Below are positions 19,185 to 50,214 of a stretch of 64,000 bases of DNA, in pieces. How positions within the stretch are numbered: position 1 is the stretch's first letter; every line of letters begins with the position of its first letter. This stretch comes from Patescibacteria group bacterium (lineage in GTDB: Bacteria; Patescibacteriota; Saccharimonadia; Saccharimonadales; VXPC01): assembly GCA_039028495.1 (NCBI GenBank), contig JBCCHY010000001.1:3528-67527 (forward strand), written 5' to 3'. The notes beneath the pieces are model-generated. The model was not told the origin of the DNA, searched no databases, and saw only the letters and a program-made list of their open reading frames with translations. The position numbers and the translations under genes were made by a program.

Positions 19185-19275
<91 letters not shown>

Positions 19276-21082: not shown

Positions 21083-21287
21083 TTTCTCGCTAACCCTCCT
21101 TGGTCTTGCTCCGAATTATACGGTGTAGGGGGCGGGGGCTGCAAGACTTTGTTGTACCTTTAACTGATCCTGTAGAGCTTCCCCAAACCCTGCCGATGTT
21201 TCTAGCCTGGCTTGGGAGAGTTCTACTTGAAAAAGAAACAGCCCCGAGATCCAGGGCTGTTTCGCTACTTCTAGCCTATGCGTCGTA

Positions 21288-21725
21288 TTAGACTCGGCCG
21301 AGCACGAACCTAACTATTGTCTGCGCGAGCGCTACAACTACTAGGCCAATGATGGCGTAGAGGATTGTATCCTTAGCTGCTTTGACTCCAGCCTGGTCGC
21401 CACCAGATGTGATGTACTTGAAGCCAGCATAGATAATCATGATTACGGCAACAACACCGATGATCCATGAGAATATGTCGATTATAGTCGTGACGATGTT
21501 GTTTATATCGTCAGTAGCAGCTGTTGTATCACAATTAGACGCGTCTGAGTCAAACTTCAGGTCAGCACCTTGACATAGCCTGTTCTCAATATTAGTTGTT
21601 TCCGAAGATCCGCCTGGGGCAGGGGTTTCCTGGGCCAGAACCGTACTCGAACCTACAACAGGTAGCCCTAACGGCAATGCTGCTGCGAAGAGACTGATTA
21701 CAAGTATTTTGAGTTTACTTAGCAT
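21288..21725 (-). CDS. T4SS pilin-like protein (TrbC/VirB2-like), paralog 1
   Basis: 145 aa; signal peptide, Cys-containing variable region, conserved C-terminal module IIGVVAVIMIIYAGFKYITSGGDQAGVKAAKDTILYAIIGLVVVALAQTIVRFV shared by all five neighbours. Confidence 0.65.
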   Translation of the reverse strand: MLSKLKILVISLFAAALPLGLPVVGSSTVLAQETPAPGGSSETTNIENRLCQGADLKFDSDASNCDTTAATDDINNIVTTIIDIFSWIIGVVAVIMIIYAGFKYITSGGDQAGVKAAKDTILYAIIGLVVVALAQTIVRFVLGRV

Positions 21726-21805
21726 TTAGTTAATCCTTTTTTATCACTATATGGTTATGATTATAGACGTATTAGCTCGGAGCGTCCACTATAAATAGGG
21801 GGTGC

Positions 21806-22231
21806 CTAGCCAGCTGCTGGGTCAACTGCCTCAACTGCGCCCGGGGTTCCAGTCGCCTCGTTGATGACAAATCGCACAATCGCCTGAGCCATGACTACCA
21901 CTGCTAGGCCTACCAGTCCGTAGATGATACCGTTTCGAGCCTGGCCAACTTTCTGAGCGTCACCGCCTGCCAGGATGAATCTCAGGCCAGACACTATTAT
22001 CATGATCACAGCAATCACTCCAACCACCCAGCTGAGTATGCTGATCACATTGCCGACTAGGTTATTAACTTCTGTTTCGGCATTGCCACCAGGGCCACCG
22101 GCTGCGTCTACGCCGCGCAACACATCGCTGCCGTCCTGTGCGCTAGCAGTCCCCGTCATGAAGCCTATTAGGGCAATTACCACCATCAGGCTGATCGTGC
22201 TGAAGGCATCTATTTTTGTGAGTGTGTTCAT
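21806..22231 (-). CDS. T4SS pilin-like protein, paralog 2
   Basis: 141 aa; VVGVIAVIMIIVSGLRFILAGGDAQKVGQARNGIIYGLVGLAVVVMAQAIVRFV module. Confidence 0.65.
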   Translation of the reverse strand: MNTLTKIDAFSTISLMVVIALIGFMTGTASAQDGSDVLRGVDAAGGPGGNAETEVNNLVGNVISILSWVVGVIAVIMIIVSGLRFILAGGDAQKVGQARNGIIYGLVGLAVVVMAQAIVRFVINEATGTPGAVEAVDPAAG

Positions 22232-22261
22232 TTTTTATCCTTTTTATCAGATTGACTGATG

Positions 22262-22870
22262 TTAACTATACCATATTCTCTGGTTTTCAGCTGGTCTGGT
22301 CATATAGGTTGTTTCGGATTCTGCGCTCGGAGTTTCAGTAATCCGCTCTACCATGTAGGCAACTATCGGGGCTGCAAAGGTCGCTATGACTGCTCCGACT
22401 AGTGCATATATTATCGTTTGGCGAGCACTCGACGTCTTGGCCGGATCACCGTCGGACAGAACGTATCTGATGCCGCCAACCACAATCATGATTACGGATA
22501 TGATTCCCGTTGCGACTGCAATTAATCCTGCGATGCGGCCAACTAGTGTCGGTGCGTCGCCATCGACGGTTATGACTTCTCCTAGAGCAAACCTGGTGAT
22601 CGCAAATCCAAATATCGCTACTGCCATACCGACACCGGCATAGATGATGCCGTTCTTTGCCTGAGACGTCTTGCCCGGATCGCCACCTGATAGGGCGTAG
22701 CGCATACCCTGCAGTGTGATCATCAGCACACTGAGCGCACCCAGCACGCTAAACGCCAGAGTCAGGACATCGCTCACCGTTTCCTGTGCACTACCTGTGC
22801 TGATCTGGGGGAGAGAGTCAGGTCTCTCCAGAACAATTTGTGCAAAACCAGCGATCATATCTAGAACCAT
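22262..22870 (-). CDS. T4SS pilin-like protein with two tandem pilin modules, paralog 3
   Basis: 202 aa; two copies of the hydrophobic-helix / GGDPxKT / hydrophobic-helix module (LQGMRYALSGGDPGKTSQAKNGIIYAGVG... and VGGIRYVLSDGDPAKTSSARQTIIYALVG...). Confidence 0.6.
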   Translation of the reverse strand: MVLDMIAGFAQIVLERPDSLPQISTGSAQETVSDVLTLAFSVLGALSVLMITLQGMRYALSGGDPGKTSQAKNGIIYAGVGMAVAIFGFAITRFALGEVITVDGDAPTLVGRIAGLIAVATGIISVIMIVVGGIRYVLSDGDPAKTSSARQTIIYALVGAVIATFAAPIVAYMVERITETPSAESETTYMTRPAENQRIWYS

Positions 22871-23427
22871 AGGAACCCCGCGCTACCGTCTACAAGCGTT
22901 GTATGTACCCATTCCAATATTAGTCGTACAGAGCCAGCAATAACCGCTCCGACGATGCCATTGATGATAGTCTGACGAGCATCGTTTGTCTTGTCCGGCG
23001 ACCCATCACTAGCGACGTATTTGAACCCACCAACTATAGTGAAGCCTACAGCGACAATACCTGCGAGCGATACGATCGCGATCAGAACATTGTTGGCAAT
23101 TATCAGGATGGGGTTTTGATCTGCATCACCACTCAGCACGTCACCTGTATCCAGATCATCGCAGTTAGACAGGCCACGATCCCAGGTAGGTATACCGAGT
23201 ATGCTACGGTTCTCGGCATCGCCTTCACATCCACTAGCGCTTACACCCGGTTCAGGCGTAGAGTCCTGCGCATATACACTCGGTGTACTCGCTAAATGTA
23301 GTGCAGGAACAACCAGAGAGAGGAGTGCCACGAGTACAATGAGCTTACGTTTTATCATGCGAAAACTCCTCCGGGTATTAGATAGTTCAGAAATGCGTAG
23401 AGGCCTAGGAATGCCACGTAGGCCCAA
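22861..23427 (-). CDS. T4SS pilin-like protein, paralog 4 (probable true start at ATG 23358)
   Basis: 188 aa ORF; likely start MIKRKLIVLV whose ATG overlaps the upstream gene's TGA (ATGA coupling); C-terminal module IVGGFKYVASDGSPDKTNDARQTIINGIVGAVIAG. Confidence 0.6.
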   Translation of the reverse strand: MGLRGIPRPLRISELSNTRRSFRMIKRKLIVLVALLSLVVPALHLASTPSVYAQDSTPEPGVSASGCEGDAENRSILGIPTWDRGLSNCDDLDTGDVLSGDADQNPILIIANNVLIAIVSLAGIVAVGFTIVGGFKYVASDGSPDKTNDARQTIINGIVGAVIAGSVRLILEWVHTTLVDGSAGFLWF

Positions 23428-24053
23428 ATAGCATTGTATATACGATTCTTGGCTGACTGAACTCTCTGGGGGTTACCGTTGCTAGCAGAGTACTGAATAC
23501 CCCCTACTGCAGCCACGGCAACAACAATCAATGTCGTCAGCAGTGCCATGACGTTCAGTATGCCGTTGATCAGATTAAACAATTCACAATTACTGTGGGA
23601 TGTACACGTACTACTTCCTCCGCTTGATGAGGTGCTACCACCTAGTGCAGCTGGTGTACCCGCGTCAATAGCTCCCGATGGGCATTCACCTGTCGTATAT
23701 AGCTCTAGTCGACCAGTGCCGTTATCACAAAACGCCCCGTCAGAGCCTGTGACCGCTGTGGCTGGACCACCATCATTGATCGCTGGACAGCCAGATGCGT
23801 CTTCTGTGTAATAGACTCCGCGGTTTGAGCCCGATAGAACAGCCTCTTCAAACACACACAGTGCACCACCACTGGTTGTAGGTTGTTGTCCATCTGGACA
23901 ATCGTCACCGGCACCGTATTCAAAAACACGCCCAATATCGTCATAACAGGTCAGTGCGGCAACATTTTGTACATTTGGCTGAACCATGACAAAGAGAGCT
24001 CCGGCGAGCACCGGGACAATTAGCAGTTTTAGATTTTTTAGTTTTGCAATCAT
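23355..24053 (-). CDS. T4SS pilin-like protein, paralog 5, with Cys-rich extracellular region
   Basis: 232 aa; signal peptide, ~12 Cys in the variable region, C-terminal module VVAVAAVGGIQYSASNGNPQRVQSAKNRIYNAIWAYVAFLGL. Confidence 0.6.
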   Translation of the reverse strand: MIAKLKNLKLLIVPVLAGALFVMVQPNVQNVAALTCYDDIGRVFEYGAGDDCPDGQQPTTSGGALCVFEEAVLSGSNRGVYYTEDASGCPAINDGGPATAVTGSDGAFCDNGTGRLELYTTGECPSGAIDAGTPAALGGSTSSSGGSSTCTSHSNCELFNLINGILNVMALLTTLIVVAVAAVGGIQYSASNGNPQRVQSAKNRIYNAIWAYVAFLGLYAFLNYLIPGGVFA

Positions 24054-24151
24054 TTCTAATACTCTGTCAATTATCCCTCAATTAGCTTAATAAGTATAGC
24101 CCTATTCAAACTGTAGTAATTGTTACGTCTATAGGTTATATTAGTGCTTAA

Positions 24152-25852
24152 GTGATGAGAGCTAAAATAAAACAATTTCTTGGTCAGGGGTTGGTGCTAC
24201 TTGTGGCATTGTTTGCGATTAGTTCGCTACAAACTGCAAATGTCCACGCCGACCATGTTACTAACGGTAGTGACTTCCCGGGAACCGTTACAGCTGAAAT
24301 CATCGGCATAGATACCGTCCAGATTACTATCGATCGCGACCCTCAGGCTAATGGTCGAGATGACCCACCGCTTACATTTACGCTCTTTAACGATAGAGGT
24401 CTCCACAACCCAGACAATAAACCAACCGCAAAATTCGAAGCAGGTGACCAAGAAGGCATTCCAGAATACCAATGTGGTGACGATGCATGGAGCTCAAAAT
24501 TAGTCATAAATGACTATCCATACATTGGCGATCAGCCGACAAGCTTCACCGCTAACCTAGGATTCCACTATCCGGTAACCGTAGGAGACTGCTCGATAGA
24601 GTTCAGAGTCAGCGGACTAGCTGTCTCTAATGCACTCTCGGGCGACACCGGTGTCTCTCCAGGGGCTGAAAACTATATATTCGATGGTGGAGAAGTAAGA
24701 TCAGCTGATGGTCAATTCTGCTATCGTCAAGATCCACTGCTTGATTCACGGGTGCAGGCGGGGGCATATGTTCAGTATGAATGCGGCTCAGGTCCTGTCA
24801 GATATCGACCAGAGTGCCCCGACTTCTTTTTATTTGGTGGATCAGAAGCTCAGCTTGAAAACACCTCACCACTGACCTTTGATCTCATCCAAAGGTTTGA
24901 GGAGAGAACAGGCGCTGATAGATGTAGATCCGCAGCAAACGCTGTCAGAACCGCAGTATCAGTAGTCAATAACGCCGCCTTACCCGAAGACAGCCAGGTC
25001 ACCACAGGACCTAACTCACCAGGATCAGGTGAGGGGGTTCAGGACTGTGAGACTACTGGCTATGACGAGTCTAGACTCTCCTGGATCATTTGTAGCGCCC
25101 TAGAGCTTGCGGACAGGGCTCTAACCTGGATCGATGGACAGATCGCCGACCAGCTGCGCATAAATGTTGATGAGCTACGAAACGAAGATAGCTACCGTAA
25201 GGCCTGGGGTGCTATGCGTAACCTGGCAACGGTATTCATTATCATTACCGCGTTCGTGATGGTTATCTCTACCGCATTAGACGTCAATGTATTCAGTAAC
25301 TACACGGTTAAAAAATACTTGCCTAGACTGGTGCTGGGCACAATATTCATCCAGCTCTCGTGGGTTCTGGGCCTACTCACGATAGAGGCCGCTGGGTTCC
25401 TGGCAGATGGTATAGAGTTCCTGTTATTCACCGCGTTTAACGGTGACGGGGTTGTGCAGAATCTCAATCTAACCACTCTGTTTGAACACTATATACAAAG
25501 AGAGGGATTGACTACAGCGGCGACAGGCGTTGGATTTGCAGGACTCATCGCCGCAGGTGCTCTACTGAGTCTGGGCGGGTTCTTTGCGATTTTGGCACTC
25601 GCCTGGTCAGCGGCCGGGTTCCTATTTTTCGCCTGGATATTCCTCATCATCAGACAGCTACTAATATTCACACTGATCATCATGGCGCCGCTGGGTATAT
25701 CACTATGGATCCTGCCGGGCAGCGATAGGGCCTGGGGACTATACCGCAAACTGTTCTTTATACTGCTATATATCGAAATAACCATGGTCTCTATATCGGC
25801 AATTGGTAAAATAATGGCCTGGATAACAATCGGCGCACCGGGGAGCCTCTAG
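24152..25852 (+). CDS. VirB6/TrbL-like polytopic membrane protein of the T4SS-like locus
   Basis: 566 aa; signal peptide and ~330-aa extracellular domain, then at least 6 TM helices (ATVFIIITAFVMVIS... FAWIFLIIRQLLIFTLIIMAPLGISLWIL) in VirB6-like topology; divergent from the pilin array. Confidence 0.55.
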   Translation: MMRAKIKQFLGQGLVLLVALFAISSLQTANVHADHVTNGSDFPGTVTAEIIGIDTVQITIDRDPQANGRDDPPLTFTLFNDRGLHNPDNKPTAKFEAGDQEGIPEYQCGDDAWSSKLVINDYPYIGDQPTSFTANLGFHYPVTVGDCSIEFRVSGLAVSNALSGDTGVSPGAENYIFDGGEVRSADGQFCYRQDPLLDSRVQAGAYVQYECGSGPVRYRPECPDFFLFGGSEAQLENTSPLTFDLIQRFEERTGADRCRSAANAVRTAVSVVNNAALPEDSQVTTGPNSPGSGEGVQDCETTGYDESRLSWIICSALELADRALTWIDGQIADQLRINVDELRNEDSYRKAWGAMRNLATVFIIITAFVMVISTALDVNVFSNYTVKKYLPRLVLGTIFIQLSWVLGLLTIEAAGFLADGIEFLLFTAFNGDGVVQNLNLTTLFEHYIQREGLTTAATGVGFAGLIAAGALLSLGGFFAILALAWSAAGFLFFAWIFLIIRQLLIFTLIIMAPLGISLWILPGSDRAWGLYRKLFFILLYIEITMVSISAIGKIMAWITIGAPGSL

Positions 25853-26998
25853 ATGCTACAAGAAGAAGTTGAACTACTGATCGCATTTGTCCTACTGGCA
25901 GGGTCAGTCTTCGGGGCTGTATTTTTGGCTACTCGCGCCGTAGCTGGTGTCCTGGGCATATTCGGTATACAAAACGACCCAACCAAAGGTATCCTCGACC
26001 GCGGCAAAAACTTCCTCAACAAAAAAGGAGAAGCACGCAAGCAAAGAAATGCTGAACAAAAACAGCTTGATGCCGCGAGCCGTCTTGCCAGAGACGCCCG
26101 TACTGGTGGGGCAAAAGGCGTAGGTAGAAGAGCAGTCAGAAGAGCGACCGGAGGAACGCTCAGAGATCGAGCTCGTACAGGAACCTTGGGGGTTGCTCCT
26201 GTGGGTACTTCTGCGAGGGCAAGAAAAAGAAAGAGGGCAGATACATTGGTGCAGGGTAATGAAGCGGACCTTGCAAGAAAGATTCAACAGGCGAGAGTTC
26301 TTGAGTCAGAAGACAAATACTTCAATACAGACGTCGACTCTATTGATGCATCACAGAAAGCGGCCGTCGAGAAAGCGGCTATTGATAATGCGACCGCATT
26401 AATAACTAGACAGACCTCACAAATGGGTTTTGTAGATAAAATGAACCACCTTCAAGAGCTCTCCTTAGACGAATCGGCAAGCAGTGAACAAAGAAGAGCT
26501 GCGATAACCATGATCACCAAAAACAAACAATATGGTAGGCTTGCTAGCATACAGGGGGAACTGGCAGACAGGGGTTCTGGTGGTGCAGAGTTATGGCGTA
26601 AAGCGCTCGGTGATAACTATAGTGATTTTAAAGAACTAGGCGCAGGATTAACGGTTGATCTATCCGACGGAAACGATAGAGTCAACAGAAAGACCGGTGA
26701 AGTCACCATAACCGGATCAAAGAACTCTTCACGAGTTGCAGCAGATCGGCTTGTTGAGATGGCCAAGCTTGATGATAAAACGCTTTCACTACAAGATGCG
26801 GGCGCACTACGAGAGTTTATGTCTGTACCCGTAATTGTGACTGATCCAGCAACCGGTGCGACAGTGAATACTGGCGACAGAGGTGCCGCAATAGCAGGTG
26901 ATCATACCTTACCAGTAGGTGCGCCAGGAAGAAGCGGTAGCGAAAAACTTCAGAGTGAAATGGCTCCAGAAAATATCGACATTCTACGCAGAACATAA
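25853..26998 (+). CDS. Hypothetical membrane-anchored protein (T4SS-locus associated)
   Basis: 381 aa; ATG immediately follows the stop of the VirB6-like gene; N-terminal TM then basic/charged region. Confidence 0.45.
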   Translation: MLQEEVELLIAFVLLAGSVFGAVFLATRAVAGVLGIFGIQNDPTKGILDRGKNFLNKKGEARKQRNAEQKQLDAASRLARDARTGGAKGVGRRAVRRATGGTLRDRARTGTLGVAPVGTSARARKRKRADTLVQGNEADLARKIQQARVLESEDKYFNTDVDSIDASQKAAVEKAAIDNATALITRQTSQMGFVDKMNHLQELSLDESASSEQRRAAITMITKNKQYGRLASIQGELADRGSGGAELWRKALGDNYSDFKELGAGLTVDLSDGNDRVNRKTGEVTITGSKNSSRVAADRLVEMAKLDDKTLSLQDAGALREFMSVPVIVTDPATGATVNTGDRGAAIAGDHTLPVGAPGRSGSEKLQSEMAPENIDILRRT

Positions 26999-27071
26999 TT
27001 GGTGTTCTAGTTTTGATGTCAGTTCAGTATATCTTGGCCTGGCTCACTTCTAGCAAAGCTATACCTACAGG

Positions 27072-27938
27072 CTATACCCTTCTCTTGCTCCGTCTACGTT
27101 GTCGTATAGACCCACCGGAACCACTACGACCAATCCCTAGCGCTCCAAAAGGACTAAAGCCAAGTGCTTTCTGCCCCAAGCCATCTCGAGCTGACCAATT
27201 TGCGTGACCCGTAGCTCCTATAATATTGTCATGTTCGTCCCGATGAACTGTAACCTTCCTCTCGTTACCGAGAACTGCAGCACCAACAGCTACAGCGCCT
27301 GAAAATAGAGCAACACCGACCGGCATGGATGTGAGGTTTTCCGCCCCATCAAATAGCAGATCTTTAAAGAACCATTTAAACGGCTGGAATTCGCCCGAAG
27401 GCACCTCGGATATGCTTTCGCCTAATCTTCCGGCTGCATCCCTTGCCATGTCCGTGCCCTTATCAATTTCATCTGCCCAGCTGTCTGGGATTATGTCCAC
27501 TGGGTCTTTATCTGTAATTTCATCCAATCCGTCGTTTGATAATTCGCTGGTTTCTCGACCAGAGTTAAAGAGTGTCCCTCTGATACCGCTACCCCAAAAA
27601 CCTATCGCAGCCACTGTTCCTACGAATCTAATTGCAGATCTACCTTTTTCTACTATAAAAGACTCAGGTGTCCCCGGCTCTACTGTTTCATTTTTCAGAG
27701 TTGTAACAAAACGTGCTGGTGCATCTACAGGTTTTGTGAGTATATTCATCCCTCCTGCGAATACACGCCTAACCCCTGTGTAAGGATTGGCTTTCACGGG
27801 TGGTGTAGAGAATGCAATCGCAGCAGCCCCTAGAGCATTTTGGTCTTCAGGATCGAGATTGTTATAAGCATTTCTAGCATTAGCGGCTGCTCGACGCGCA
27901 TTTGCTTTTATATTCATTCTAGGTAGTCTTGGTGCCAT
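27072..27938 (-). CDS. Hypothetical protein with Gly-rich TM region and basic C-terminal tail
   Basis: 288 aa; only minus-strand gene inside the + strand T4SS block; C-terminus ...RQRRRSKRRV. Confidence 0.4.
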   Translation of the reverse strand: MAPRLPRMNIKANARRAAANARNAYNNLDPEDQNALGAAAIAFSTPPVKANPYTGVRRVFAGGMNILTKPVDAPARFVTTLKNETVEPGTPESFIVEKGRSAIRFVGTVAAIGFWGSGIRGTLFNSGRETSELSNDGLDEITDKDPVDIIPDSWADEIDKGTDMARDAAGRLGESISEVPSGEFQPFKWFFKDLLFDGAENLTSMPVGVALFSGAVAVGAAVLGNERKVTVHRDEHDNIIGATGHANWSARDGLGQKALGFSPFGALGIGRSGSGGSIRQRRRSKRRV

Positions 27939-27994
27939 GGCTATATATTAGCATAAGTTTGCTTGTTTGTAAATAGTCTTATGCTTACTTTTCT

Positions 27995-28990
27995 TTGTAC
28001 TTGCACCTACTCGAATCACCACTGGAGAAAAGTCTGACTACTGTTATAATAATGCTCATGGCAACCTATAAAGTTCTGCAGGACATAGAGGCAGAAGACA
28101 AGCTGATCGGGCCGCTGACGTTCAAGCAGCTGGTGTTTGGATTCATTGCTGCCGGGATCATGTTTCTCGGCTGGTTTGTAGCACGCAGTAGCAGCATATT
28201 CATATTCATTCCATTCTTCATCCTGGCCAGCCCATTTTTATTTCTGGCGGCACCCATAGGGCAGGACCAGCCTAATGATGTCTGGCTAGGCGCTCGGCTA
28301 CGATTTTTTTTCAAACCGCGCGTACGTAAGTGGGACCAGACAGGGCAAAGCGAATACGTCACCGTAACTGCCCCAAAGCGTGAAGAGCACGTATACACAG
28401 ATGGATTGGAGCAGACAGAGGTAGAAAGCCGCCTAAAGCTACTCGCCAACACACTAGACAGCCGCGGCTGGGCGGTTAAAAATAGCAACGTAAACCTAGA
28501 AAAGGTGACCAGCGCTAGCACCATGAGCGATGGGGCGCGACTCGTCCATCCGGGCGACCTGCCGCAAGAGGTGCAGCAAGTGGACATACATGCTAGTGAC
28601 GATATGTTTGATGGTACCGCTCGTATTGGCCAGAACGTTGACCAGCTCATGAGTGAACGGCAGGAGCAGGCCCGTATATCAGCCGTACGCCAGATGCAGA
28701 CAACGCCGACTAGCGGACAAGTTCTAGAGGCAGAGTTCCTCGACCAGCTCCACAAACAGCAGGACCGTCTAGGCATACATCATGGTGACGAAGTAGCTGA
28801 AGCCAGAGACGTCGGTCACTCAGCAGTAGCGGCAGAACGAAAAATACCGGAGATACCAAAAGCCCCAGATACTAACCAACAGCTGGGGGCGGTAAATGAC
28901 CTGAAAGTATCGACGCTCGCTAGTCTGGCGAAAAACAAAAAATCCGGTGACGATACACTTACCGACGATACGGTGATAGAATTACACTAA
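27995..28990 (+). CDS. PrgI/VirB3-like membrane protein with long C-terminal extension (start possibly at 28055 or 28061)
   Basis: N-terminus MATYKVLQDIEAEDKLIGPLTFKQLVFGFIAAGIMFLGWF plus a second TM helix resembles PrgI-family (VirB3-like) proteins that precede VirB4 in Gram-positive-type T4SS. Confidence 0.5.
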   Translation: MYLHLLESPLEKSLTTVIIMLMATYKVLQDIEAEDKLIGPLTFKQLVFGFIAAGIMFLGWFVARSSSIFIFIPFFILASPFLFLAAPIGQDQPNDVWLGARLRFFFKPRVRKWDQTGQSEYVTVTAPKREEHVYTDGLEQTEVESRLKLLANTLDSRGWAVKNSNVNLEKVTSASTMSDGARLVHPGDLPQEVQQVDIHASDDMFDGTARIGQNVDQLMSERQEQARISAVRQMQTTPTSGQVLEAEFLDQLHKQQDRLGIHHGDEVAEARDVGHSAVAAERKIPEIPKAPDTNQQLGAVNDLKVSTLASLAKNKKSGDDTLTDDTVIELH

Positions 28991-29003
28991 TTAAAGGGGT
29001 GGG

Positions 29004-29870
29004 ATGAATCCAAATAACCAAGCACCAGGACAACCAGGACAGGCGGCCGCTCAAGCCCCGGTCAATCCTACCCTGGCTCCAGTCAACCCTGGAGCAATCA
29101 CTGGAGGCCCACAGCCTGGTCAGCCAAAACCTGCGGTATCCGTAAACCCCAATAGCACCCAAAACACCCTGCAGGTAGCAGAGGTCCGTGACGGTATCGT
29201 CATCATGGCCGATGGATCATTCCGGGCCGTTGTCATGTGTAAAGCCATCAACTTTGACCTCATGAGCCCTCAGGAAAAAGAGGGTGTAGAGTACGCCTAT
29301 CAGGGATTTCTAAATTCCCTCTACTTTGACATCCAGATATCTGTCAAATCTCGCCGCGTAGACGTCAAACCATATCTAGAGAAACTGACCAAAATCCGCC
29401 GCGAACAGGACAATATGCTGCTCGGTCTACTCATGGAGGACTACATATATTTCCTCGAGGATCTCACGCAGCAGACTAATATCATGGACAAAATGTTCTA
29501 TGTCACGATCCCATACTATGACACTAGCCTATCTGCCGCCAACATCTCTCGCAGTACCAAAAATATCTTTGCCAACATATTCTCATTCAATAAAACTCCG
29601 GACAAAGTAACAATAGACGAAAATGCTCTGGAGCAGGCTAAAACAGAGCTCCGTAACCGCGTCCAGGCAATCATGCAGGGATTACAGGCCTGTGGGGTCC
29701 AGAGCCTACCACTTGATACAGAGGAGCTGATCGAGCTCTACTACGATAGCTATAACCCAGATACTGCAACTAGGCAAAAGCTCAAAAACTTCGGTGGACT
29801 GTCTCAGGATGTTATTGGCAAGGGTGACGGTGTTGCCAGTACGGATCACTTGAATCGGAGTGTCCAGTAA
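29004..29870 (+). CDS. VirB4-like ATPase, N-terminal domain encoded as a separate ORF (Pro/Gln-rich leader plus TcpF/PrgJ-type N-domain)
   Basis: 288 aa; IVIMADGSFRAVVMCKAINFDLMSPQEKEGVEYAYQGFLNSLYFDIQISVKSRRVD matches the N-terminal domain of Gram-positive-type VirB4; stop TAA overlaps next ATG (TAATG). Confidence 0.5.
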   Translation: MNPNNQAPGQPGQAAAQAPVNPTLAPVNPGAITGGPQPGQPKPAVSVNPNSTQNTLQVAEVRDGIVIMADGSFRAVVMCKAINFDLMSPQEKEGVEYAYQGFLNSLYFDIQISVKSRRVDVKPYLEKLTKIRREQDNMLLGLLMEDYIYFLEDLTQQTNIMDKMFYVTIPYYDTSLSAANISRSTKNIFANIFSFNKTPDKVTIDENALEQAKTELRNRVQAIMQGLQACGVQSLPLDTEELIELYYDSYNPDTATRQKLKNFGGLSQDVIGKGDGVASTDHLNRSVQ

Positions 29871-31801
29871 TGTTCGGTAAAAAGAAACAGCAGGTAGACC
29901 CCGTTACTCTGGCTCAGCAGCAGCGCATGCAGGAACAAGTAGAGGTCCAGCACGCCTTTCAAAAAGGCGTCACAGCACTACGTGACTTTATCGCCCCCAG
30001 TAGCATCATGTTCGAAGGCGGCTACTTCCAGCTCGGTACGCGCTATGCCCGCACATACTATGTGTATGGTTACCCGCGCAAGGTATATACCGGCTGGTTA
30101 AGCGGTCTCATAAACATCGATGAAGTCATGGACATGTCGATGTTTATCTACACTGCCGACAGCCAAGTCGTACTAGAAAACCTACGTAAAAAGGTTGGTC
30201 AGCTAGAGGCGGGTATAAGCCTCGACAATGAAAAGGGCCGCGTCCGTGACCCGGCCAAACAAGCAGCGATCCTGGACGCTGAAGAAATGCGAGACAAACT
30301 ACAGGTGGGTGAAGAGCGCTTCTTCCGCTTTGGACTGTACTTCACAATCTACGGCAATAGTTTTGATGAGCTAGAGTTCATTAGCCACAAGGTAGAAACA
30401 ATGCTCGGTAACCAACTGGTATACAGTAAACCAGCCAGCGCCCAGCAAGAACAAGGCCTCAATAGCACCATCCCGCAATTTGTCGACCAGCTACAAATTA
30501 GGCGCAATATGAACACGGGTGCTATCAGTACTTCATTCCCATTCACTAGTGCCGACCTGACACAGGAGAGCGGCATTCTCTACGGTGTAAACATGCACAA
30601 TTCTGGGCTAGTCATTTTTGACCGCTTCGGTTTAGAGAACAGCAACAGCGTGGTTTTCGCGAAATCTGGTGCAGGTAAAAGCTTTACCGTCAAACTCGAA
30701 GCCCTCCGCCAGCTAATGCTTGGCACAGAGATCGTCATTATCGACCCAGAGAATGAATACCAGCGCATGTGTGAAGCAGTCGGCGGATCCTATCTGAAAC
30801 TCAGTCTCAATAGCCCAACCAGAGTCAATCCTTTTGACCTACCAAGAGTAGTTGATGCCGAAGACGGTGAGAACGCCCTGCGGTCTAACCTGATTACACT
30901 ACATGGGCTGCTGCGTCTTATGATGGGTGGGGCACAGGCCCAGCTAGCGGCAGGTGGGGCAGCTACCATGCCGGTGCTCACCCCGAGTGAAGAGGCAGAC
31001 CTAGATGCAGCCCTCATTACTACCTACGAAAAGGCCGGTATCACCAACGACCCGCTAACCCATGGTAGCCCTCCGCCGACCATAGCTGATCTCTACGATA
31101 CTCTGCTGCACATGGGCGGCTCTGGGCCTCAGCTTGCACAGCGACTGCGTAAATATACCAGCGGCACATTCGCCGGTATATTCAGCCAGCAGAGCAACAT
31201 TGATATGGATAATCCGCTTGTCTGCTTTAACGTGCGGGACCTAGAGGACGAGCTACGACCAGTGGCTATGTATATCGTGCTTAACTACATCTGGAACAAG
31301 ACCAAGGCTGACCAGAAGCGCCGTATCCTGGTCGTTGACGAGGCCTGGCAGCTAATGAAATATGAAGACTCTGCTAATTTCCTTTTCAGCCTGGCAAAAC
31401 GAGCCCGTAAGTATAATCTAGGTATCACGACGATCACTCAGGATGTAGAGGACTTCATGGCATCTCGCATGGGTAGGGCAATCGTCGCCAATGCGAGCAT
31501 GCAGATACTGCTCAAACAGTCTCCAAGTGCTGTCGACGTTCTCGCAGATGTCTTCAAGCTAACGAGCGAGGAAAAGAAACGTCTTAGTCAGTTCCCTGTC
31601 GGGCAAGGGCTCTTTTTCGCCGGTCAAAACCATGTCCATATACAAATTCTACCGAGCGCAACCGAGCAGGAGCTCATCACAACTAATCCGGATCAGATCG
31701 CTGCTCTGCAGCAGGCCCAGGAGCAGCCTCAGCAAACAACAAATCTAAACGACAGCCTCATGCCTGGTGTCGGTGATAGCTCCGAAATCCAGCTCCACTA
31801 A
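29870..31801 (+). CDS. virB4: VirB4-like T4SS ATPase (central and C-terminal ATPase domains)
   Basis: 643 aa; Walker A FAKSGAGKSFTVK, Walker B ILVVDEAWQLM, VirB4-type middle region (GYFQLGTRYARTYYVYGYP...GWLSGL). Confidence 0.8.
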   Translation: MFGKKKQQVDPVTLAQQQRMQEQVEVQHAFQKGVTALRDFIAPSSIMFEGGYFQLGTRYARTYYVYGYPRKVYTGWLSGLINIDEVMDMSMFIYTADSQVVLENLRKKVGQLEAGISLDNEKGRVRDPAKQAAILDAEEMRDKLQVGEERFFRFGLYFTIYGNSFDELEFISHKVETMLGNQLVYSKPASAQQEQGLNSTIPQFVDQLQIRRNMNTGAISTSFPFTSADLTQESGILYGVNMHNSGLVIFDRFGLENSNSVVFAKSGAGKSFTVKLEALRQLMLGTEIVIIDPENEYQRMCEAVGGSYLKLSLNSPTRVNPFDLPRVVDAEDGENALRSNLITLHGLLRLMMGGAQAQLAAGGAATMPVLTPSEEADLDAALITTYEKAGITNDPLTHGSPPPTIADLYDTLLHMGGSGPQLAQRLRKYTSGTFAGIFSQQSNIDMDNPLVCFNVRDLEDELRPVAMYIVLNYIWNKTKADQKRRILVVDEAWQLMKYEDSANFLFSLAKRARKYNLGITTITQDVEDFMASRMGRAIVANASMQILLKQSPSAVDVLADVFKLTSEEKKRLSQFPVGQGLFFAGQNHVHIQILPSATEQELITTNPDQIAALQQAQEQPQQTTNLNDSLMPGVGDSSEIQLH

Positions 31802-31855
31802 TATCTACCTCTGTAAAAACTAGATACTCATGGTTAGCTCCTATATACTTACGTC

Positions 31856-34675
31856 ATGGGAATTTTCAGAGGTGACAACCAGGACGACGGCTACGAGCCT
31901 GACGCTCTTGCTCCCGATGCAGCAGAAACACCCGACAATACTCACCACACTGCTGAAGCCGAACAGGCTCAACTGGCAAACATACTGGCTGAAAACGGCG
32001 TGTATGATGCCGAGGATCAAGGGAGTTTTTATACGGGCCCCATTGCTGAGGCAGAGGATGAGGCTGCGGCAAGCACAGAGGAAACATCTAATGATGACCT
32101 AGAGAGCGGTCGCCTGGGTAGTTTTTACCAGGCAGCGGCCGCACGGACCTCTCCATCAAAGGGCAAAATATTCGGTGCACTGGGGTTGTTTGTTGCCCCT
32201 TATCTATTCCTGCTGCCATTACTATTCACACCCGGATTCGACCTAGAGCATATCAACCGCCTGACGACGGCTTTTAGGTTTGGGCATTTCCACACACAAC
32301 TCGGCAAACGAGTAAACCATCTAGCTAATTTCCAGATAGCCTACACTGCAGGGGGCGCCGACTATATAGAGGGTAGAAATATACCAAACTACGAGAGAAC
32401 CACCATGTTTCAGCGCATGGTTGGATCGGATGCAAAATCTGTCTGGGATAAATACGGAGACAGATTTACTCCTGTCTATGAACGCAGGGCAACGACCCTC
32501 GGACTTAGACGTCTAACGTCAATTACGGACGAAGTCACTGGCATAACCTATAGCACTAGACGAACCCCTGATCTGAGAGCGCTCGAGCAGCTCACTGCTA
32601 GCCTGGACCCAACCGATGCCCAAGTCGGAGTGCTCAGAACTAGGCCTGAGATATCCCTGTTTGCCCGAAATAACGGCGTGCCGTTCAGTAGGTTCGCACT
32701 TATAGTTAGCAAACTGAGAGAAAACCATCCTGACGTTGATACCAGACAAAAGGTGCGTGCAGAAGCAACTAAAGAAAGGCGCAATGCTACAAAACCAAGA
32801 GCAACCACCTTTCAAACCTTGGCGGGAGCTGGTCAGGAAGAGCTGAGCGATGGCTTCGTAGAGCAAATTGAATCGGGTGAATCACCTGGCAGAGCTCGCC
32901 AATGGCTCGCCGACAATCTCGAGTTTAATAAAAAGGTGCTCCTAAATACTGGTAGGCTCAGTGTAGCTGTTGGATTGGGTACAATTGCCTGCGTCTTCAG
33001 GGATGCTGCTGACACTATAGAGCAGGGTATCGTGGATAGAACACGAGGGCTCATGGTTCAGGCATCAGACACAGAGACAAATGTGTCTCAAAACAGACTT
33101 GGCTTAAACCCCGCCGAGATTGCAGCAGTGCTATCTAGCGATTTTGACGGACATGTACGCTCTGCAGCCTGGGCAGCATCAATGAAGGGCGTTCCTGTTG
33201 AAGAGACCGATCCAGATTTTAATTTTAGTAATCTATTCAACTTTAAAAATTATCTGGGAATATCAGTACGTACAGTCCTAGAGTTTGATAGGGCTATAGA
33301 CTTTGCTATCGACAACATACCTTCAAACCCTGCTGAGGTGTTAACAGACATTGGCGAAGCTATTCCTGTAGTGGGTAGTCCTTTTGGACTAATTGATAAT
33401 TCTTTTGATAGTCTCAAAAGAAGAGCTGCTGATGAAGGTTGCAAACATATCCTCAACCCGGGAGTGCAGATCGGCCTCACCGTAGTAGAACTCGTAGGTA
33501 CTGTAATTCTGACCTTCTTTACTGGACCGCTTGCAGGAACCGCTAAAGGAGGAGCTGGTGCGGTGATATCGCAGATTGCTAGATCAGTTGCCACCACCAG
33601 AGCAGCTGTTTCGTTAGGAGCGAGCATAGGGGCAGATTGGCTAATATATAACTGGATAATCCCGCGAGCGATAGAACAAAGTACAGGCATAAGCACCACC
33701 TACCTACCAGGTGAGGGCGCCAGGAATGTTGAAATACTGCTAGAAGGAAGTCGGCTCAATGCTGAGTCTGTTTCTCTCACGAGCGGGGGCACCATTACGA
33801 GCTCTGAGGTAGCGCTGGCGGCAAGCTTTGACCATATGCACAAATATCGAGAGTCTTTCACAGACCGCGGACTAGCCAGTAACCTCTTTGACCTAGACAA
33901 TCCATATTCAGGCGCCTCTAGTCTCGCCTCTAGCATACCTAGTAGTGTAAAAGACGGCGGTCAAAGCGTAGCTAGTCTGGCTTCATCAGTTTTTAGCGGA
34001 AGTGCGCTTATGAGCATATTTGGCGGTTCAGCATCAGCGCAGACCCAGAATAGAGACTTTAGAAACAACGGCCAGGCCTATATAGATCTCCTCTACGCAG
34101 GCAGTAGCTTTGGTGTTGGTTTTAACGAGCAGGAAATGACAGGCGAGGACCTAGACTTTGACCATGTAATAAACAGTGACTACGTCGAAGCAGATCTGCC
34201 GATACTGCTGGAGGAGTACGGCAAGTGTATAACCGTAAATTATCATGATCTAGTCCTCGTGGAGAGTGGCGTCATTAGGGATGATGAGCGTAAAAAAGAG
34301 TTAGGATATCCAGAAGAGTGCTACGATCGTGATGCACGTAGACTGCTGATCTACTGGTCCGACTGCAACACTGCCGTTAGCCTGCGCGAGGTAAGTCAGC
34401 TGCGCAGTGCCTTTTACTCGACCGAGTGTGCTCAGGATCTCGCGCCAGAGCTGCTGACCGCTGCACCGGTGAACGAGGAAGACTATCGCTATAATACTGC
34501 TCCCTACAGACTGCTGGCTGCCGCGCAGGACAAAGAGGCAAAGGAGCGGACCTTTACACAAAAAATCGGGGCTGAGCTGCGCGAGCTTCACCAAACAAGC
34601 CTTGACATGCGCGGGGACGTTTATGCAGCTACAGACGAGCCAGCCATCGCCTCGAGAAGGAGCACACTACTATGA
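31856..34675 (+). CDS. Large hypothetical membrane protein of the T4SS-like locus
   Basis: 939 aa; acidic N-terminus, TM hairpin near residue 100 (IFGALGLFVAPYLFLLPLLF), second hydrophobic block near residue 540-600; no catalytic motif. Confidence 0.5.
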   Translation: MGIFRGDNQDDGYEPDALAPDAAETPDNTHHTAEAEQAQLANILAENGVYDAEDQGSFYTGPIAEAEDEAAASTEETSNDDLESGRLGSFYQAAAARTSPSKGKIFGALGLFVAPYLFLLPLLFTPGFDLEHINRLTTAFRFGHFHTQLGKRVNHLANFQIAYTAGGADYIEGRNIPNYERTTMFQRMVGSDAKSVWDKYGDRFTPVYERRATTLGLRRLTSITDEVTGITYSTRRTPDLRALEQLTASLDPTDAQVGVLRTRPEISLFARNNGVPFSRFALIVSKLRENHPDVDTRQKVRAEATKERRNATKPRATTFQTLAGAGQEELSDGFVEQIESGESPGRARQWLADNLEFNKKVLLNTGRLSVAVGLGTIACVFRDAADTIEQGIVDRTRGLMVQASDTETNVSQNRLGLNPAEIAAVLSSDFDGHVRSAAWAASMKGVPVEETDPDFNFSNLFNFKNYLGISVRTVLEFDRAIDFAIDNIPSNPAEVLTDIGEAIPVVGSPFGLIDNSFDSLKRRAADEGCKHILNPGVQIGLTVVELVGTVILTFFTGPLAGTAKGGAGAVISQIARSVATTRAAVSLGASIGADWLIYNWIIPRAIEQSTGISTTYLPGEGARNVEILLEGSRLNAESVSLTSGGTITSSEVALAASFDHMHKYRESFTDRGLASNLFDLDNPYSGASSLASSIPSSVKDGGQSVASLASSVFSGSALMSIFGGSASAQTQNRDFRNNGQAYIDLLYAGSSFGVGFNEQEMTGEDLDFDHVINSDYVEADLPILLEEYGKCITVNYHDLVLVESGVIRDDERKKELGYPEECYDRDARRLLIYWSDCNTAVSLREVSQLRSAFYSTECAQDLAPELLTAAPVNEEDYRYNTAPYRLLAAAQDKEAKERTFTQKIGAELRELHQTSLDMRGDVYAATDEPAIASRRSTLL

Positions 34676-35961
34676 GCCTGATTACGAAAATTACCGAGAA
34701 GCTATGGGGGATGACTGCTACACTGCTAGTACTCTCGGTCATTCTGGCGCCGACCACGTCCGCACAGTCTACCTTCAACGAAGGGGCCGCTCACCTGTAC
34801 CCTTGGTTTGACTATCGTGACGACGGCTCTTTCCTCGCGAACTATTCGCCCGATAACTGTAGCGTAGCTTCAAATCTCGTCGGTGGCGACCATCAAGAAA
34901 AGGCCTTTAACTTCTTTATCGGCGAAGGGCGTGGACTCTCTGCACCCCAATCAGCCGGCATAGTCGGAAACTTAATGGTCGAGTCCTACGACGAGATCAA
35001 TCCAACTGCAGAGTATCCCGGAAGCGCCAGACCCTACGGCATAGCCCAGTGGACAGACAACGGTGGCAGAAGAGATAGAATGCTAACGTGGGTAAACTCA
35101 GCCCTAAAGGACCGAGGAATTGACACCGGAGACGATCCATATACATATTTCAGTGAAGCCAGTGCTCCGTCCAGTGATGAGTTAGAAATCTATTTTGAAG
35201 TGCAGCTAGAGTTCATTTGGTACGAAATGACCCAGGGCGACGAAACGCTAGCACTCACCGAACTACAAAAGACAAACTCTGCTATTGAAGCGGCAACAGC
35301 CTTTGAGAAGTACTACGAAAGGGCTAATGGTCAGAAGCTGGAAGATCGTATAGCTAACGCAGTCGGTATTCTAAATAAATATGGCTCTAACTACGGTGGA
35401 GATGTCAGCTCTGATAGCCGCATATGTGGACAGGCAGGTAGTGGTGAAATTGTTGGTGACTGGAGCTTACCACTGAGAAGAGCGCTGTTTGATCAGAATC
35501 AGTACTGGTTCAACAAACCCCACCATAACAAGAACGAAGCCGTAGACCTAGAGGCGTCTCCCGGTGAAGAGGTCTACTCTATGACTTCTGGAACGATTAT
35601 AAACGCAGGTACTGGTACAACGGATCTATGTGGCCTGGGTGTAGTCGTTCAGTCACCAGACGGGACTCAGTTTATCTACTGCCACGGTCTCGATGGTGGC
35701 TCCGTTGATGGGGCCCGCATTAATGATACCGTAAAGGCCGGTCAGCTAATCATGCATAACGGATCCACCGGAAACTACCCGCTGGACCATCCAGACCCAG
35801 ATCTGAGAGGTAAACCTTCCTCGTCAGGGCCTCATCTACATCTTGCGATTCAGACCCCTGATGGCGCCAGAAGATGCCCACAAAAACTGCTTGAATCAAT
35901 TTACAACAAGGCTCCGATCAGCCCCGAGTCGCTTGCCACGTCAGGATGTACCAAAGGATGA
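34672..35961 (+). CDS. Secreted peptidoglycan hydrolase: lysozyme-like (phage-tail-lysozyme type) domain plus M23 peptidase domain
   Basis: 429 aa; signal peptide; SAGIVGNLMVESYDEINP...YGIAQWTDNGGRRDRML (lysozyme-like); C-terminal HHNKNEAVDL ... GSTGNYPLD...GPHLHLAIQ (M23 HxxxD / HxH). Confidence 0.7.
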   Translation: MSLITKITEKLWGMTATLLVLSVILAPTTSAQSTFNEGAAHLYPWFDYRDDGSFLANYSPDNCSVASNLVGGDHQEKAFNFFIGEGRGLSAPQSAGIVGNLMVESYDEINPTAEYPGSARPYGIAQWTDNGGRRDRMLTWVNSALKDRGIDTGDDPYTYFSEASAPSSDELEIYFEVQLEFIWYEMTQGDETLALTELQKTNSAIEAATAFEKYYERANGQKLEDRIANAVGILNKYGSNYGGDVSSDSRICGQAGSGEIVGDWSLPLRRALFDQNQYWFNKPHHNKNEAVDLEASPGEEVYSMTSGTIINAGTGTTDLCGLGVVVQSPDGTQFIYCHGLDGGSVDGARINDTVKAGQLIMHNGSTGNYPLDHPDPDLRGKPSSSGPHLHLAIQTPDGARRCPQKLLESIYNKAPISPESLATSGCTKG

Positions 35962-37457
35962 TACACCTGCTAATCAGACTGAGATTCGTTATCCTAGGGC
36001 TTATCCTAGCGGGTATAGGCTTATTGATCACCAGTAGAATCAGCTTTATAAGCCTAGAGCTACCCAGTCCACAAGAGATCGAAACCACGGTCAGCCTGAC
36101 AGACAAGGGTAGCTTGAAGAATAGCCAAATCACTATACCTAGCGGATCAACAACAGCTCGAAGGCTAGTTTTCGGTAACAACTATCAACTCAGGCTGAGG
36201 TCCGGTGACCGTGCCTCTATAGAAGCTGTAGACACCAGGGGTTTTTTCCGAACGAGCTCCGTAACAGCCGATCTACGACAGAAGCCTTCTGTCGAGTTCA
36301 TCGCTAACAACCCGGGGCCCTGTTCATTTACCGAGTCAGGTGTCGTTTATAGCTACACCTGCGGCGGTAGTCTAGATACTATGAGTGTGCATATCCCCCC
36401 AGATGGTCAGCAGCCAGGATATGTCTCCGGTTACACCGGCTCAAATCCGTCCCTAGCAATCATTGATACAGCCACACTAAATGGTAAAACTATCCTGCAT
36501 CTAGAGTCGACCGACGGCGCCAAATACCTGGCAGAATTCGATTCAGGGAACGTTGCCGAGATCGCTGTAATCAACAACCTCAGTCAGCCTGAATACAGGC
36601 TGCTCGAACGGTCCAACGACATAGTTTTGTATTCTAGCAATCTAAGGCAGGTTTTGGTTTTTAATGATATTGGGTCGACCCCTAATCTACTCGCTATTCC
36701 CGAACCTAGCAATAAGACACTAGTCGGTCATGAGCTGAGACACTTGAACGATAGGCTGTTGGCAGTATACTCAGATGCCTTCAAAGATCAGGCTATTGGT
36801 GACTCTGATGTGAATAGCGGAGAGCTAGGGGACAATAGAGGAGAATCTGAGCTAATAGTGTTCGGCGGTGGCGAAGAAATCAGGCTCCCTCTGGATCAAA
36901 CAAGGGTAGACGTCGGTTTCTGTTCTGGCAGTCTTATTTGTGTACATACAGGTGGACAGCTAGATGTCTACAGGCTTAGTAACAATTCGATACAAAAAGC
37001 TACCGACTACACAGGTGTCGAAGATATGGCCTATACAGCCTCAGGCGGATACATACTATTCGCCCAGCAAATCGCACTCCTCGATGAAGATAGCGCTTCG
37101 GTACATGAAGTTATCTCGAACAGTGCTGGATTTTGTGGGATACATCAAAATGACTCAGTACTGAGTGTATGCACAACTGTACGCGGCAGAAAACACCTGG
37201 TGAGACTGGTAGAGTCTAGCAGCTACGATAGGATCATTGAAGCGTATCAAACACTTAGCATTAGTCCCGATATTGACAGCCTAAGCATCCATAAAAACAC
37301 AATTCACATATCTCCGATCAGAGCAAAAACAGTTCAAGACCCTGGCTCTCGTTTTTCTGGACAAGACCCAGTTGAGCGAGCAGAGATACGCTCTAGGGTT
37401 GAGGCTGCCATCCAGAACGCTGGCATACCGTCTGACTATGAGGTCTATATACTCTAG
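35946..37457 (+). CDS. Hypothetical N-terminally anchored extracytoplasmic protein (T4SS-locus associated)
   Basis: 503 aa; single N-terminal TM (FVILGLILAGIGLLI); overlaps previous gene by 16 nt. Confidence 0.45.
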   Translation: MYQRMIHLLIRLRFVILGLILAGIGLLITSRISFISLELPSPQEIETTVSLTDKGSLKNSQITIPSGSTTARRLVFGNNYQLRLRSGDRASIEAVDTRGFFRTSSVTADLRQKPSVEFIANNPGPCSFTESGVVYSYTCGGSLDTMSVHIPPDGQQPGYVSGYTGSNPSLAIIDTATLNGKTILHLESTDGAKYLAEFDSGNVAEIAVINNLSQPEYRLLERSNDIVLYSSNLRQVLVFNDIGSTPNLLAIPEPSNKTLVGHELRHLNDRLLAVYSDAFKDQAIGDSDVNSGELGDNRGESELIVFGGGEEIRLPLDQTRVDVGFCSGSLICVHTGGQLDVYRLSNNSIQKATDYTGVEDMAYTASGGYILFAQQIALLDEDSASVHEVISNSAGFCGIHQNDSVLSVCTTVRGRKHLVRLVESSSYDRIIEAYQTLSISPDIDSLSIHKNTIHISPIRAKTVQDPGSRFSGQDPVERAEIRSRVEAAIQNAGIPSDYEVYIL

Positions 37458-38491: not shown

Positions 38492-38501
38492 GGAGCGACC
38501 A

Positions 38502-38945: not shown

Positions 38946-39016
38946 AACAACACTTTGCCTGAGATGTAAAGTCTTCAAAACTGGCTACACACTACTGTCA
39001 TCAGTATACTGATCGT

Positions 39017-40069: not shown

Positions 40070-40078
40070 CACCCTAAA

Positions 40079-40128: not shown

Positions 40129-40138
40129 TTTTAGCTGT

Positions 40139-50211: not shown

Positions 50212-50214
50212 TAT

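Follow-up and report, generated by a model that had tools for sequence, protein, structure and literature searches.

Is a relaxase-less type IV secretion system (T4SS) a machine in the service of the chromosome that encodes it, or is it what remains of a conjugative element, and, if it is a machine, what could it move? We addressed this question with a block of T4SS-like genes located at positions 21288-37457 of a 64,000-nucleotide stretch, hereafter the window, from a metagenome-derived Saccharimonadales genome (contig JBCCHY010000001.1, positions 3,528 to 67,527). An initial annotation, made from the sequence alone, had read the block as a chromosomal, non-conjugative T4SS-like machine. In our analysis the locus is very probably a vertically inherited chromosomal T4SS of the Saccharibacteria, of monoderm type and derived from MPF_FATA systems, that no longer has the module for conjugative DNA processing and encodes VirB2-like pilins in an array. 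Both the observation and this interpretation stand but have already been published, and the window holds one more copy of a known system, present beside the replication origin in nearly all Saccharibacteria, very small bacteria that live on other bacteria. Two of the locus proteins, of 565 and 499 amino acids (aa), have exact entries at NCBI (AAF413_00150 and AAF413_00190), labelled hypothetical.

The system is identified by its motor. Domains were sought in open reading frames (ORFs) of at least 100 aa, which cover most of those in the window, and among them VirB4 was the sole protein with a T4SS-type Walker A motif. The product of virB4 (29870..31801, plus strand) matched the conju_CD1110 model of NCBIfam at positions 172-734 with 353.7 bits (cut-off 325 bits), which is the MPF_FATA or CD1110 type; it also matched P-loop_TraG (1.7e-29) and the VirB4 structure 4AG5 in the PDB (6e-51), and its Walker A motif, AKSGAGKS, begins at residue 264. 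The VirB4 ATPase proposed initially was thus recovered by every one of these searches. Upstream of it, a TrsD-like ORF of 288 aa (29004..29870, plus strand), absent from the earlier gene list, encodes, on its own, a homologue of the N-terminal domain of VirB4 that matched positions 2-130 of conju_CD1110 (E 5.4e-8) and the TrsD model (E 1.1e-4). Since the TrsD-like product and VirB4 cover positions 2-130 and 172-734 of one and the same model, the N-terminal domain of VirB4 is encoded here by a separate gene, and this gene is translationally coupled to virB4, its stop codon sharing one base with the virB4 start. The preceding gene (27995..28990, plus strand) encodes a PrgI/VirB3-like membrane protein with a C-terminal extension of about 220 aa; the assignment, also made initially, was sustained by PF12666 at 40.8 bits, against a cut-off of 27 bits. 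Translation probably begins at the ATG at 28052, and an independent gene call gives a protein of 312 aa.

Using VirB4 to scan species-representative genomes, we obtained 520 confirmed relatives. The best 80 (L001-L080), all of them Saccharibacteria or Saccharimonadales metagenome-assembled genomes with 77-83% identity in VirB4, were used for comparison of the locus. A recurrent layout was observed. Its left half comprises comFC, hsp20, about four to seven leftward pilin genes, a rightward gene for a VirB6-like protein of 900-1300 aa and an optional variable gene; its right half comprises the genes for PrgI, TrsD, VirB4, a protein of 800-1300 aa, a hydrolase of 390-750 aa and one to three small transmembrane (TM) proteins, and it ends in a convergent recF-dnaN-dnaA group. 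Among the 80 related species, dozens share this order and the chromosomal site, so the comparison of gene order with Saccharibacteria that the initial annotation had proposed as a check came out in its favor. Median identities to the window over the 80 loci were 81% for VirB4, 58% for TrsD, 45% for PrgI, 33-46% for the pilins and 29% for the VirB6-like protein, as compared with 62% for DnaA and 43% for RecF. The searches detected the TrsD-like protein in 79 of the loci and PrgI in 73, and the 939-aa and 503-aa proteins encoded after virB4 showed 23% identity where tblastn detected them (3 and 7 of the 80 loci, respectively). A word-index homologue search gave 6, 11 and 1 matches and is nearly blind to the fast-evolving proteins of the locus. 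Conservation declines from the motor outward. A VirB4 more conserved than DnaA, together with rapidly diverging surface parts, marks a core, vertically inherited machine facing another organism.

The chromosomal setting agrees with the synteny. The left flank contains the genes for a ComFC/GntX-like phosphoribosyltransferase (19555..20217, minus strand) and Hsp20 (20624..21082, minus strand), both conserved neighbors of the locus, and three tRNA genes, the only hits of an Rfam scan; YidC, Jag/R3H, RecF and RnpA and then DnaA and DnaN are encoded on the right. These domain scans agree with the flanks as first described. The remaining scanned ORFs of the window encode housekeeping and envelope functions (MurC-like, TsaD, ValS, glycosyltransferases and teichoic-acid-type enzymes). 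No domain of a type IV coupling protein (T4CP), relaxase, VirB11 or integrase was found in the scanned ORFs, and the initial statement that these are missing holds within the 64 kb. No direct repeats bracket the block and no att-like repeat was found in the 64 kb. Nor did a suggested check for compositional discontinuity reveal any: the G+C content is 0.494 in the block and 0.491 in the left flank, and the codon-usage scores of the block (0.10-0.22) lie within those of housekeeping genes (leave-one-out mean 0.168, range 0.03-0.26). The cumulative GC skew is lowest at about 46-48 kb, next to dnaA and dnaN, which places the locus 8-24 kb from the likely origin; the distance from the end of the locus to dnaA itself is 7.7 kb. 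Fixed synteny at an origin-proximal site, native composition and the lack of mobile-element hallmarks argue that the locus is vertically inherited and non-mobile, and with a conserved site and order, no compositional break and no relaxase, T4CP, integrase or att site in 64 kb, the reading of the block as a chromosomal, non-conjugative T4SS-like machine is upheld.

Similar loci have been reported. McLean 2020 (PMC7427843) described a region, conserved in Saccharibacteria, that contains homologues of VirB4, VirB6 and VirB2, an array of 4-6 genes for signal-peptide proteins and a neighboring competence gene. In Southlakia epibionticum, SEML1_0006-0019 was annotated as a T4SS whose nearest relatives are Gram-positive conjugative systems, with an essential pilin series and without recognizable coupling or relaxase proteins; by transposon sequencing (Tn-seq) almost all of SEML1_0004-0019 was essential, with the exception of the NTF2-like SEML1_0012, and the ComFC homologue SEML1_0021 was non-essential (Wang 2023, PMC10633639). 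A survey of the phylum (Quinonero-Coronel 2025, PMC12102498) recognized a separate VirB4 clade, related to MPF_FATA, with TrsD, PrgI and VirB6, VirB2 arrays of 2-11 genes (about 25% identity), location near dnaA and almost no relaxases; T4CPs were common in Patescibacteria genomes, mostly far from virB4. According to a 2025 review (PMC12857230), the Saccharibacterial system is the first T4SS for which an essential role in the survival of its own carrier bacterium was described.

The window shows the features of that clade: an MPF_FATA-related VirB4, an upstream TrsD-like gene, PrgI, a pilin array and a relaxase-less cluster close to dnaA. As in S. epibionticum and the Patescibacteria clade in general, the cluster is origin-proximal and has neither relaxase nor T4CP. 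The arrangement also follows SEML1_0004-0019 of S. epibionticum ML1, on the left in comFC, hsp20, the divergent pilin array, the VirB6-like protein, PrgI, the TrsD-like protein and VirB4, and on the right in the large protein, the lysozyme/peptidase, the small exported proteins and recF-dnaN-dnaA. Even the number of pilins agrees, with six domains in the window and six pilins in S. epibionticum. By analogy with the Tn-seq of S. epibionticum (PMC10633639), the locus may be needed for epibiotic growth. Yet there are differences. The window has one split VirB6-like gene whereas S. epibionticum has two large ones (SEML1_0013 and 0011); the NTF2-like gene is missing here and its slot is taken by an oppositely oriented, unrelated gene; the protein encoded after virB4 is without the M15B-type peptidase tail; the hydrolase combines lysozyme and M23 domains instead of two lysozymes and a cysteine protease; the last gene encodes a 503-aa protein modeled as a beta-propeller instead of the PEGA/prealbumin-like proteins; and yidC-jag lies between the locus and recF, in a rearranged dnaA region.

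Comparison with Gram-positive conjugative systems is also informative. The genes for the VirB6-like protein, PrgI, VirB4, the 939-aa protein, the lysozyme and the 503-aa protein are collinear with prgH-I-J-K-L of pCF10, in whose annotation PrgJ is a CD1110-family VirB4 and PrgK a phage tail tip lysozyme. As in pCF10 and MPF_FATA systems of the CTn2 type, we found a CD1110-family VirB4, the PrgI family and a hydrolase with a phage-tail-type lysozyme. However, the window lacks the T4CP (PcfC), the relaxase (PcfG), the adhesins (PrgA/B/C) and the VirB8-like PrgL of pCF10; it has VirB2-like pilins, which are absent from Gram-positive systems, and a TrsD-like gene of its own encodes the VirB4 N-terminal domain. 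Profile comparisons detected no similarity to pCF10 PrgH, the N-terminal part of PrgK or PrgL. A third comparison, drawn in PMC7427843, is with ptx/ptl of Bordetella pertussis, which also has a T4SS without coupling protein beside an array of small Sec-signal proteins. In the window, however, the small proteins are VirB2-family pilins by Pfam and not toxin subunits, and the system is of monoderm type.

The pilin array is made up of five consecutive minus-strand genes with T4SS_pilin (PF18895, cut-off 26.6 bits), amounting to six Sec-exported pilin domains. All five genes are of the VirB2 type. Pilin 1 (21288..21725) has a signal peptide and a helical hairpin and matched PF18895 with 55.5 bits and TrbC with 33.9 bits, and pilin 2 (21806..22231) matched PF18895 with 43.9 bits. 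Pilin 3 (22262..22870; 69.5 bits in two stretches) is a fusion of two pilin domains and aligns with pairs of adjacent separate genes in three relatives (L001, L014 and L044). Pilin 4 (22861..23427; 42.7 bits) probably begins at the ATG at 23358, giving 165 aa in agreement with an independent gene call, and a longer ORF starts from a TTG at 23427. Pilin 5 (23355..24053) has a long cysteine-rich extracytoplasmic N-terminal extension and falls slightly below the cut-off with 25.0 bits, but it aligns with the other four pilins across the hairpin. The five tandem pilin-like genes of the first description are therefore corroborated by PF18895 in all five, the fifth at that lower score. Mutual identity among the paralogues is 22-38%. 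A terminator-like hairpin with a 13-bp stem and a T-run (21235..21263, minus strand) closes the array, and at the other end the gene layout leaves a divergent intergenic region (24054..24151) between the array and the structural operon, which presumably serves as a shared promoter region; no strong sigma-70 match was found in it.

The first two ORFs of the structural operon correspond to one VirB6-like gene. Part 1 (24152..25852, plus strand, 566 aa) comprises a signal or TM helix, an ectodomain of about 290 aa and a polytopic TM domain of about six more hydrophobic helices, and part 2 (25853..26998, plus strand, 381 aa) has one or two TM helices followed by a cytoplasmic C-terminal domain. 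A hidden Markov model (HMM) of 56 single-ORF positional orthologues aligned with part 1 at positions 8-465 (E 1e-72) and with part 2 at positions 501-800 (E 2e-8). Both parts are in one frame, separated by a single TAG, with an ATG as the next codon (25850-25855) and a GGGGAG resembling a Shine-Dalgarno (SD) sequence 8 nt upstream. The TAG is also present in an independent Logan assembly of run SRR22824298, of which 13.9 kb are identical to the window.

Elsewhere the gene is usually intact, being one ORF in 53 of the 56 related loci with a match and split in three (four of 57 with the window included). L046 is interrupted at the same boundary as the window, by a frameshift (L046:5285-5295), and L063 (5720-5725) and L078 (6090-6098) have their break at 297/298, with a stop followed by an ATG and an SD-like motif. 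In three of the four split loci the ATG comes at once or one codon after the stop, with an SD-like GGAG upstream. The VirB6-like protein is composed of three modules, the ectodomain, the polytopic domain and the cytoplasmic domain, and the breaks sit at the two module junctions. As the breaks fall at domain boundaries, show the stop-ATG configuration with its SD-like motif and recur in other lineages, the splits look like tolerated, recurrent and translationally coupled gene fissions rather than decay. This recurrent fission at domain boundaries, defining three modules, is one addition of the present locus to the published descriptions.

Several searches bear on the VirB6/TrbL assignment. No significant Pfam or NCBIfam match was obtained for this protein or its homologues; one homologue (P0005) matched TrbL at E 0.18, hhalign against PrgH of pCF10 gave E 0.13, and 27 orthologues, used as a profile against the PDB, gave nothing but noise. 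An AlphaFold2 (AF2) model from an alignment of 11 sequences reached pLDDT values of 70-84 in the TM domain only, with the N-terminal ectodomain unfolded, and the top two Foldseek matches of this model in the PDB were TrwI/VirB6 of R388 (E about 0.1). Position, topology, weak fold matches and the literature on homologues suggest, short of proof, that 24152-26998 encodes a VirB6-like protein. Polytopic topology and position speak for the original VirB6/TrbL proposal, which lacks a significant profile match. The ORF 25853-26998, put forward as a possible lineage-specific component, is the second half of what forms a single VirB6-like gene in relatives.

The variable parts of the operon lie in a slot between the VirB6-like gene and the PrgI gene and downstream of virB4. 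The slot (26999-27994) is occupied in the window by a gene on the strand opposite to the operon (27072..27938, minus strand) for a lineage-specific protein of 288 aa with one C-terminal TM helix. Its codon-usage score (0.127-0.134) is coding-like and those of the other five frames are negative. No homologue was found in the 80 related loci, Pfam or NCBIfam; the proposal of a lineage-specific candidate thus retains its force, with the correction that the gene is on the opposite strand. Judged by eye, the 288-aa and 381-aa proteins (27072-27938 and 25853-26998) are mostly disordered or helical. A plus-strand ORF at 27325-27783 was rejected as a gene, its codon usage being non-coding. The slot holds 31 genes in relatives, each a singleton by BLAST, to which phmmer adds only two weak links; nearly all lack TM helices or signals and many have starts rich in Pro, Glu and Ser. 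A few slot genes are housekeeping insertions, with N-termini that by eye are like those of riboflavin synthase, SAH hydrolase and sugar kinase (L035, L074).

Downstream of virB4, the 939-aa bitopic or polytopic membrane protein (31856..34675, plus strand) belongs to a conserved post-VirB4 family, matching a local HMM of 66 orthologues over residues 7-775 (E 4.8e-35); SEML1_0007 occupies the same position in S. epibionticum. The window copy had no Pfam or PDB match, and for the conserved 770-aa core of the family neither a relative in the PDB nor a relationship to PrgK was found. In 45 relatives an invariant cysteine is followed by a tail of 30 to 567 residues, and Pfam recognized in these tails VanY (11 proteins), M23 (4), Exo_endo_phos (3), CHAP (2), GDSL (2) and, once each, Amidase_2, GDPD, a beta-lactamase-like domain and M14. 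The tail of the window copy has 148 residues and no recognizable domain, so the hydrolase domain of many relatives is absent. Initially the protein had been named as a candidate lineage-specific component.

The next gene (34672..35961, plus strand) encodes a secreted or anchored cell-wall hydrolase in the VirB1/PrgK role. The lysozyme-like and M23 domains ascribed to it initially were both detected (Phage_lysozyme2, 1.2e-22; Peptidase_M23, 4.2e-11). The core of its family is a phage-tail lysozyme in 33 of 57 members, and the second domains are shuffled among M23, C39-like, GDSL, Amidase_3, NlpC/P60, glucosaminidase, CHAP, SLT and GH3. In both this protein and the one before it the enzymatic domains differ by species, an architecture that resembles that of polymorphic toxins or effectors; in the first of the two the swapped domains are at the C-terminal end, where measured.

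The last gene of the operon (35946..37457, plus strand) encodes a 503-aa extracytoplasmic protein anchored in the membrane. Its family counts 448 cluster representatives at E<=1e-3, all of about 500 aa, and in each of 15 loci its gene comes third after virB4 and last ahead of recF. An AF2 model built with 84 representatives (pLDDT 93, pTM 0.88) predicts a TM helix, a beta-sandwich, a beta-propeller and a small alpha/beta C-terminal domain, and Foldseek returned generic propellers only (E about 1e-7). A VirB8 or NTF2-like fold, for which a structural check had been suggested, was rejected for this protein, as the model gave a beta-propeller and no profile match to PrgL was obtained. It too had been put forward initially as a candidate lineage-specific component. 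This confidently modeled beta-propeller as the terminal operon gene of one sub-lineage is a second addition to previous descriptions.

Swappable hydrolase tails, and slot proteins that lack signals and have disordered N-termini, lead to the tentative and rather unlikely idea that the operon carries a polymorphic payload of envelope-breaching enzymes and effectors that sets host range. As far as we know, this idea is not described in PMC7427843, PMC10633639, PMC12102498 or PMC12857230. In the window, the 27072-27938 protein and the tail of 31856-34675 could be payload candidates. The variable enzyme tails and the hypervariable slot thereby offer concrete candidates for substrates or host-specificity factors, a third addition of this locus.

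In T4SSs, pilin extraction and substrate passage are energized by VirB4 hexamers that dock at the membrane on VirB3 and VirB6, and hydrolases of the VirB1 type open the wall. By this model, VirB4 and the TrsD-like protein, seated on PrgI and the VirB6-like protein, would power the extraction and polymerization of the pilins, which would pass through a gap cut by the hydrolase in the cell's own wall and form, in the direction of the host bacterium, a filament or channel of the VirB2 type. Across the host contact, non-DNA cargo on which epibiotic growth depends would then be moved in one direction or the other, most likely protein effectors or envelope-breaching enzymes, and the fast-evolving outer parts (pilins, VirB6 ectodomain, hydrolase tails and variable-slot gene) may adapt the machine to its hosts. 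The substrate of such a monoderm T4SS with pilins is central to how epibionts of the candidate phyla radiation exploit their hosts.

Four points weigh against a functional secretion machine of this kind. An in-frame stop interrupts the VirB6-like gene, and loss of function in this genome is formally possible. A T4CP may be encoded elsewhere in the genome, beyond the 64 kb analyzed of the 80.8-kb contig. No VirB8-like protein was found, the 503-aa candidate having been assessed by AF2, Foldseek and a PrgL profile. Finally, neither substrate nor transport direction is readable from the sequence, in which no effector was identified.

Among the alternatives, the one that survives best is a pilus or adhesion organelle, that is, a VirB2-type filament for attachment or sensing through which nothing else is translocated. 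Six pilin domains with 22-38% identity would suit adaptation to host surfaces, no T4CP is nearby and the pilins are essential in S. epibionticum (PMC10633639). We nevertheless consider a filament of this kind improbable, since type IV pili already give adhesion in these organisms (PMC12102498, PMC12857230), and since the large conserved membrane proteins, together with the shuffled lytic and esterase domains of relatives, suggest envelope breaching.

Very improbable is a DNA-uptake machine, comparable to ComB of Helicobacter or Ced of the Crenarchaeota, that would import DNA from the environment or the host as a nucleotide source together with ComFC. The conserved comFC neighbor and the lack of de novo nucleotide synthesis in Saccharibacteria (PMC10633639) would be consistent with it, and VirB4 does match CedB (53.6 bits) and CedD (28 bits) weakly, but the CedB score is far below the 700-bit cut-off. 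In S. epibionticum, moreover, the T4SS genes are essential whereas ComFC (SEML1_0021) is not (PMC10633639), and deletion of comEC abolishes transformation and leaves the cells viable, competence being credited to type IV pili and ComEC (PMC12857230). DNA uptake, one of two functions offered in the initial annotation, is disfavored on these grounds.

That the block is the non-functional remnant of a Gram-positive-type integrative conjugative element deprived of relaxase, coupling protein and integrase is extremely unlikely: its CD1110/MPF_FATA conjugative-type VirB4, the gene order mirroring prgH-L of pCF10, the tRNA genes with short tRNA-Ser fragment repeats 2 kb to the left and the in-frame stop in the VirB6-like gene would accord with such an origin, but the same order and site recur in dozens of species, VirB4 is more conserved than DnaA, the composition is native, no integrase or att site brackets the block, no more than about 110 bp separate the copies of the tRNA fragments, the VirB6-like split falls at a domain boundary with an SD-like GGAG and an ATG and recurs in other lineages, and the homologues are essential in S. 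epibionticum (PMC10633639).

Several observations concern the surroundings of the locus. Exact copies of 16-20 nt from the ends of tRNA-Ser(tga) (19186-19275) were located at 19068-19087 (3' end) and 19369-19384 (5' end), about 105-116 bp off; they are small partial duplications inside the tRNA cluster, with no element between them. On the other side, the origin region (37526-47888) is rearranged with respect to more than 60 relatives in which the operon runs directly into convergent recF-dnaN-dnaA. The order in the window is yidC-jag-recF (plus strand), rnpA (minus strand), an ORF of 322 aa, rpmH (41569-41706, minus strand), the genes for an 805-aa and a 170-aa protein and dnaA-dnaN (plus strand). 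The 322-aa ORF (40465-41433, plus strand) separates rpmH and rnpA, which are usually adjacent, and has a codon-usage score of 0.03 compared with 0.17 for housekeeping genes; with no homologue in Pfam, NCBIfam or the related loci, it could have been inserted recently or be spurious. The gap between recF and rnpA, which converge, contains a perfect palindrome of 28+28 nt (40076-40131), probably a bidirectional terminator. The 805-aa protein encoded beside the origin (41769-44186, minus strand) is secreted, with a Cutinase match (4.9e-16) and a weak PKD match; this cutinase-type esterase could act on the lipid envelope of the host.

Two more regions of the window deserve mention. At its left end, adjacent genes (4547-7546 and 7594-10074, minus strand) encode very acidic, apparently disordered proteins of 999 and 826 aa without Pfam match, which have short 'I(S/T)E(I/L)A..LG(I/V)' motifs in common; a single TM helix is present in the first, around residue 700. 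The right end (47889-64000) is occupied by a surface-glycan cluster of lower G+C content (0.45), with genes for two tandem Stealth-family proteins, a CDP-glycerol glycerophosphotransferase, an ABC ATPase, several glycosyltransferases, an FkbM methyltransferase and a Bac_transf priming transferase.

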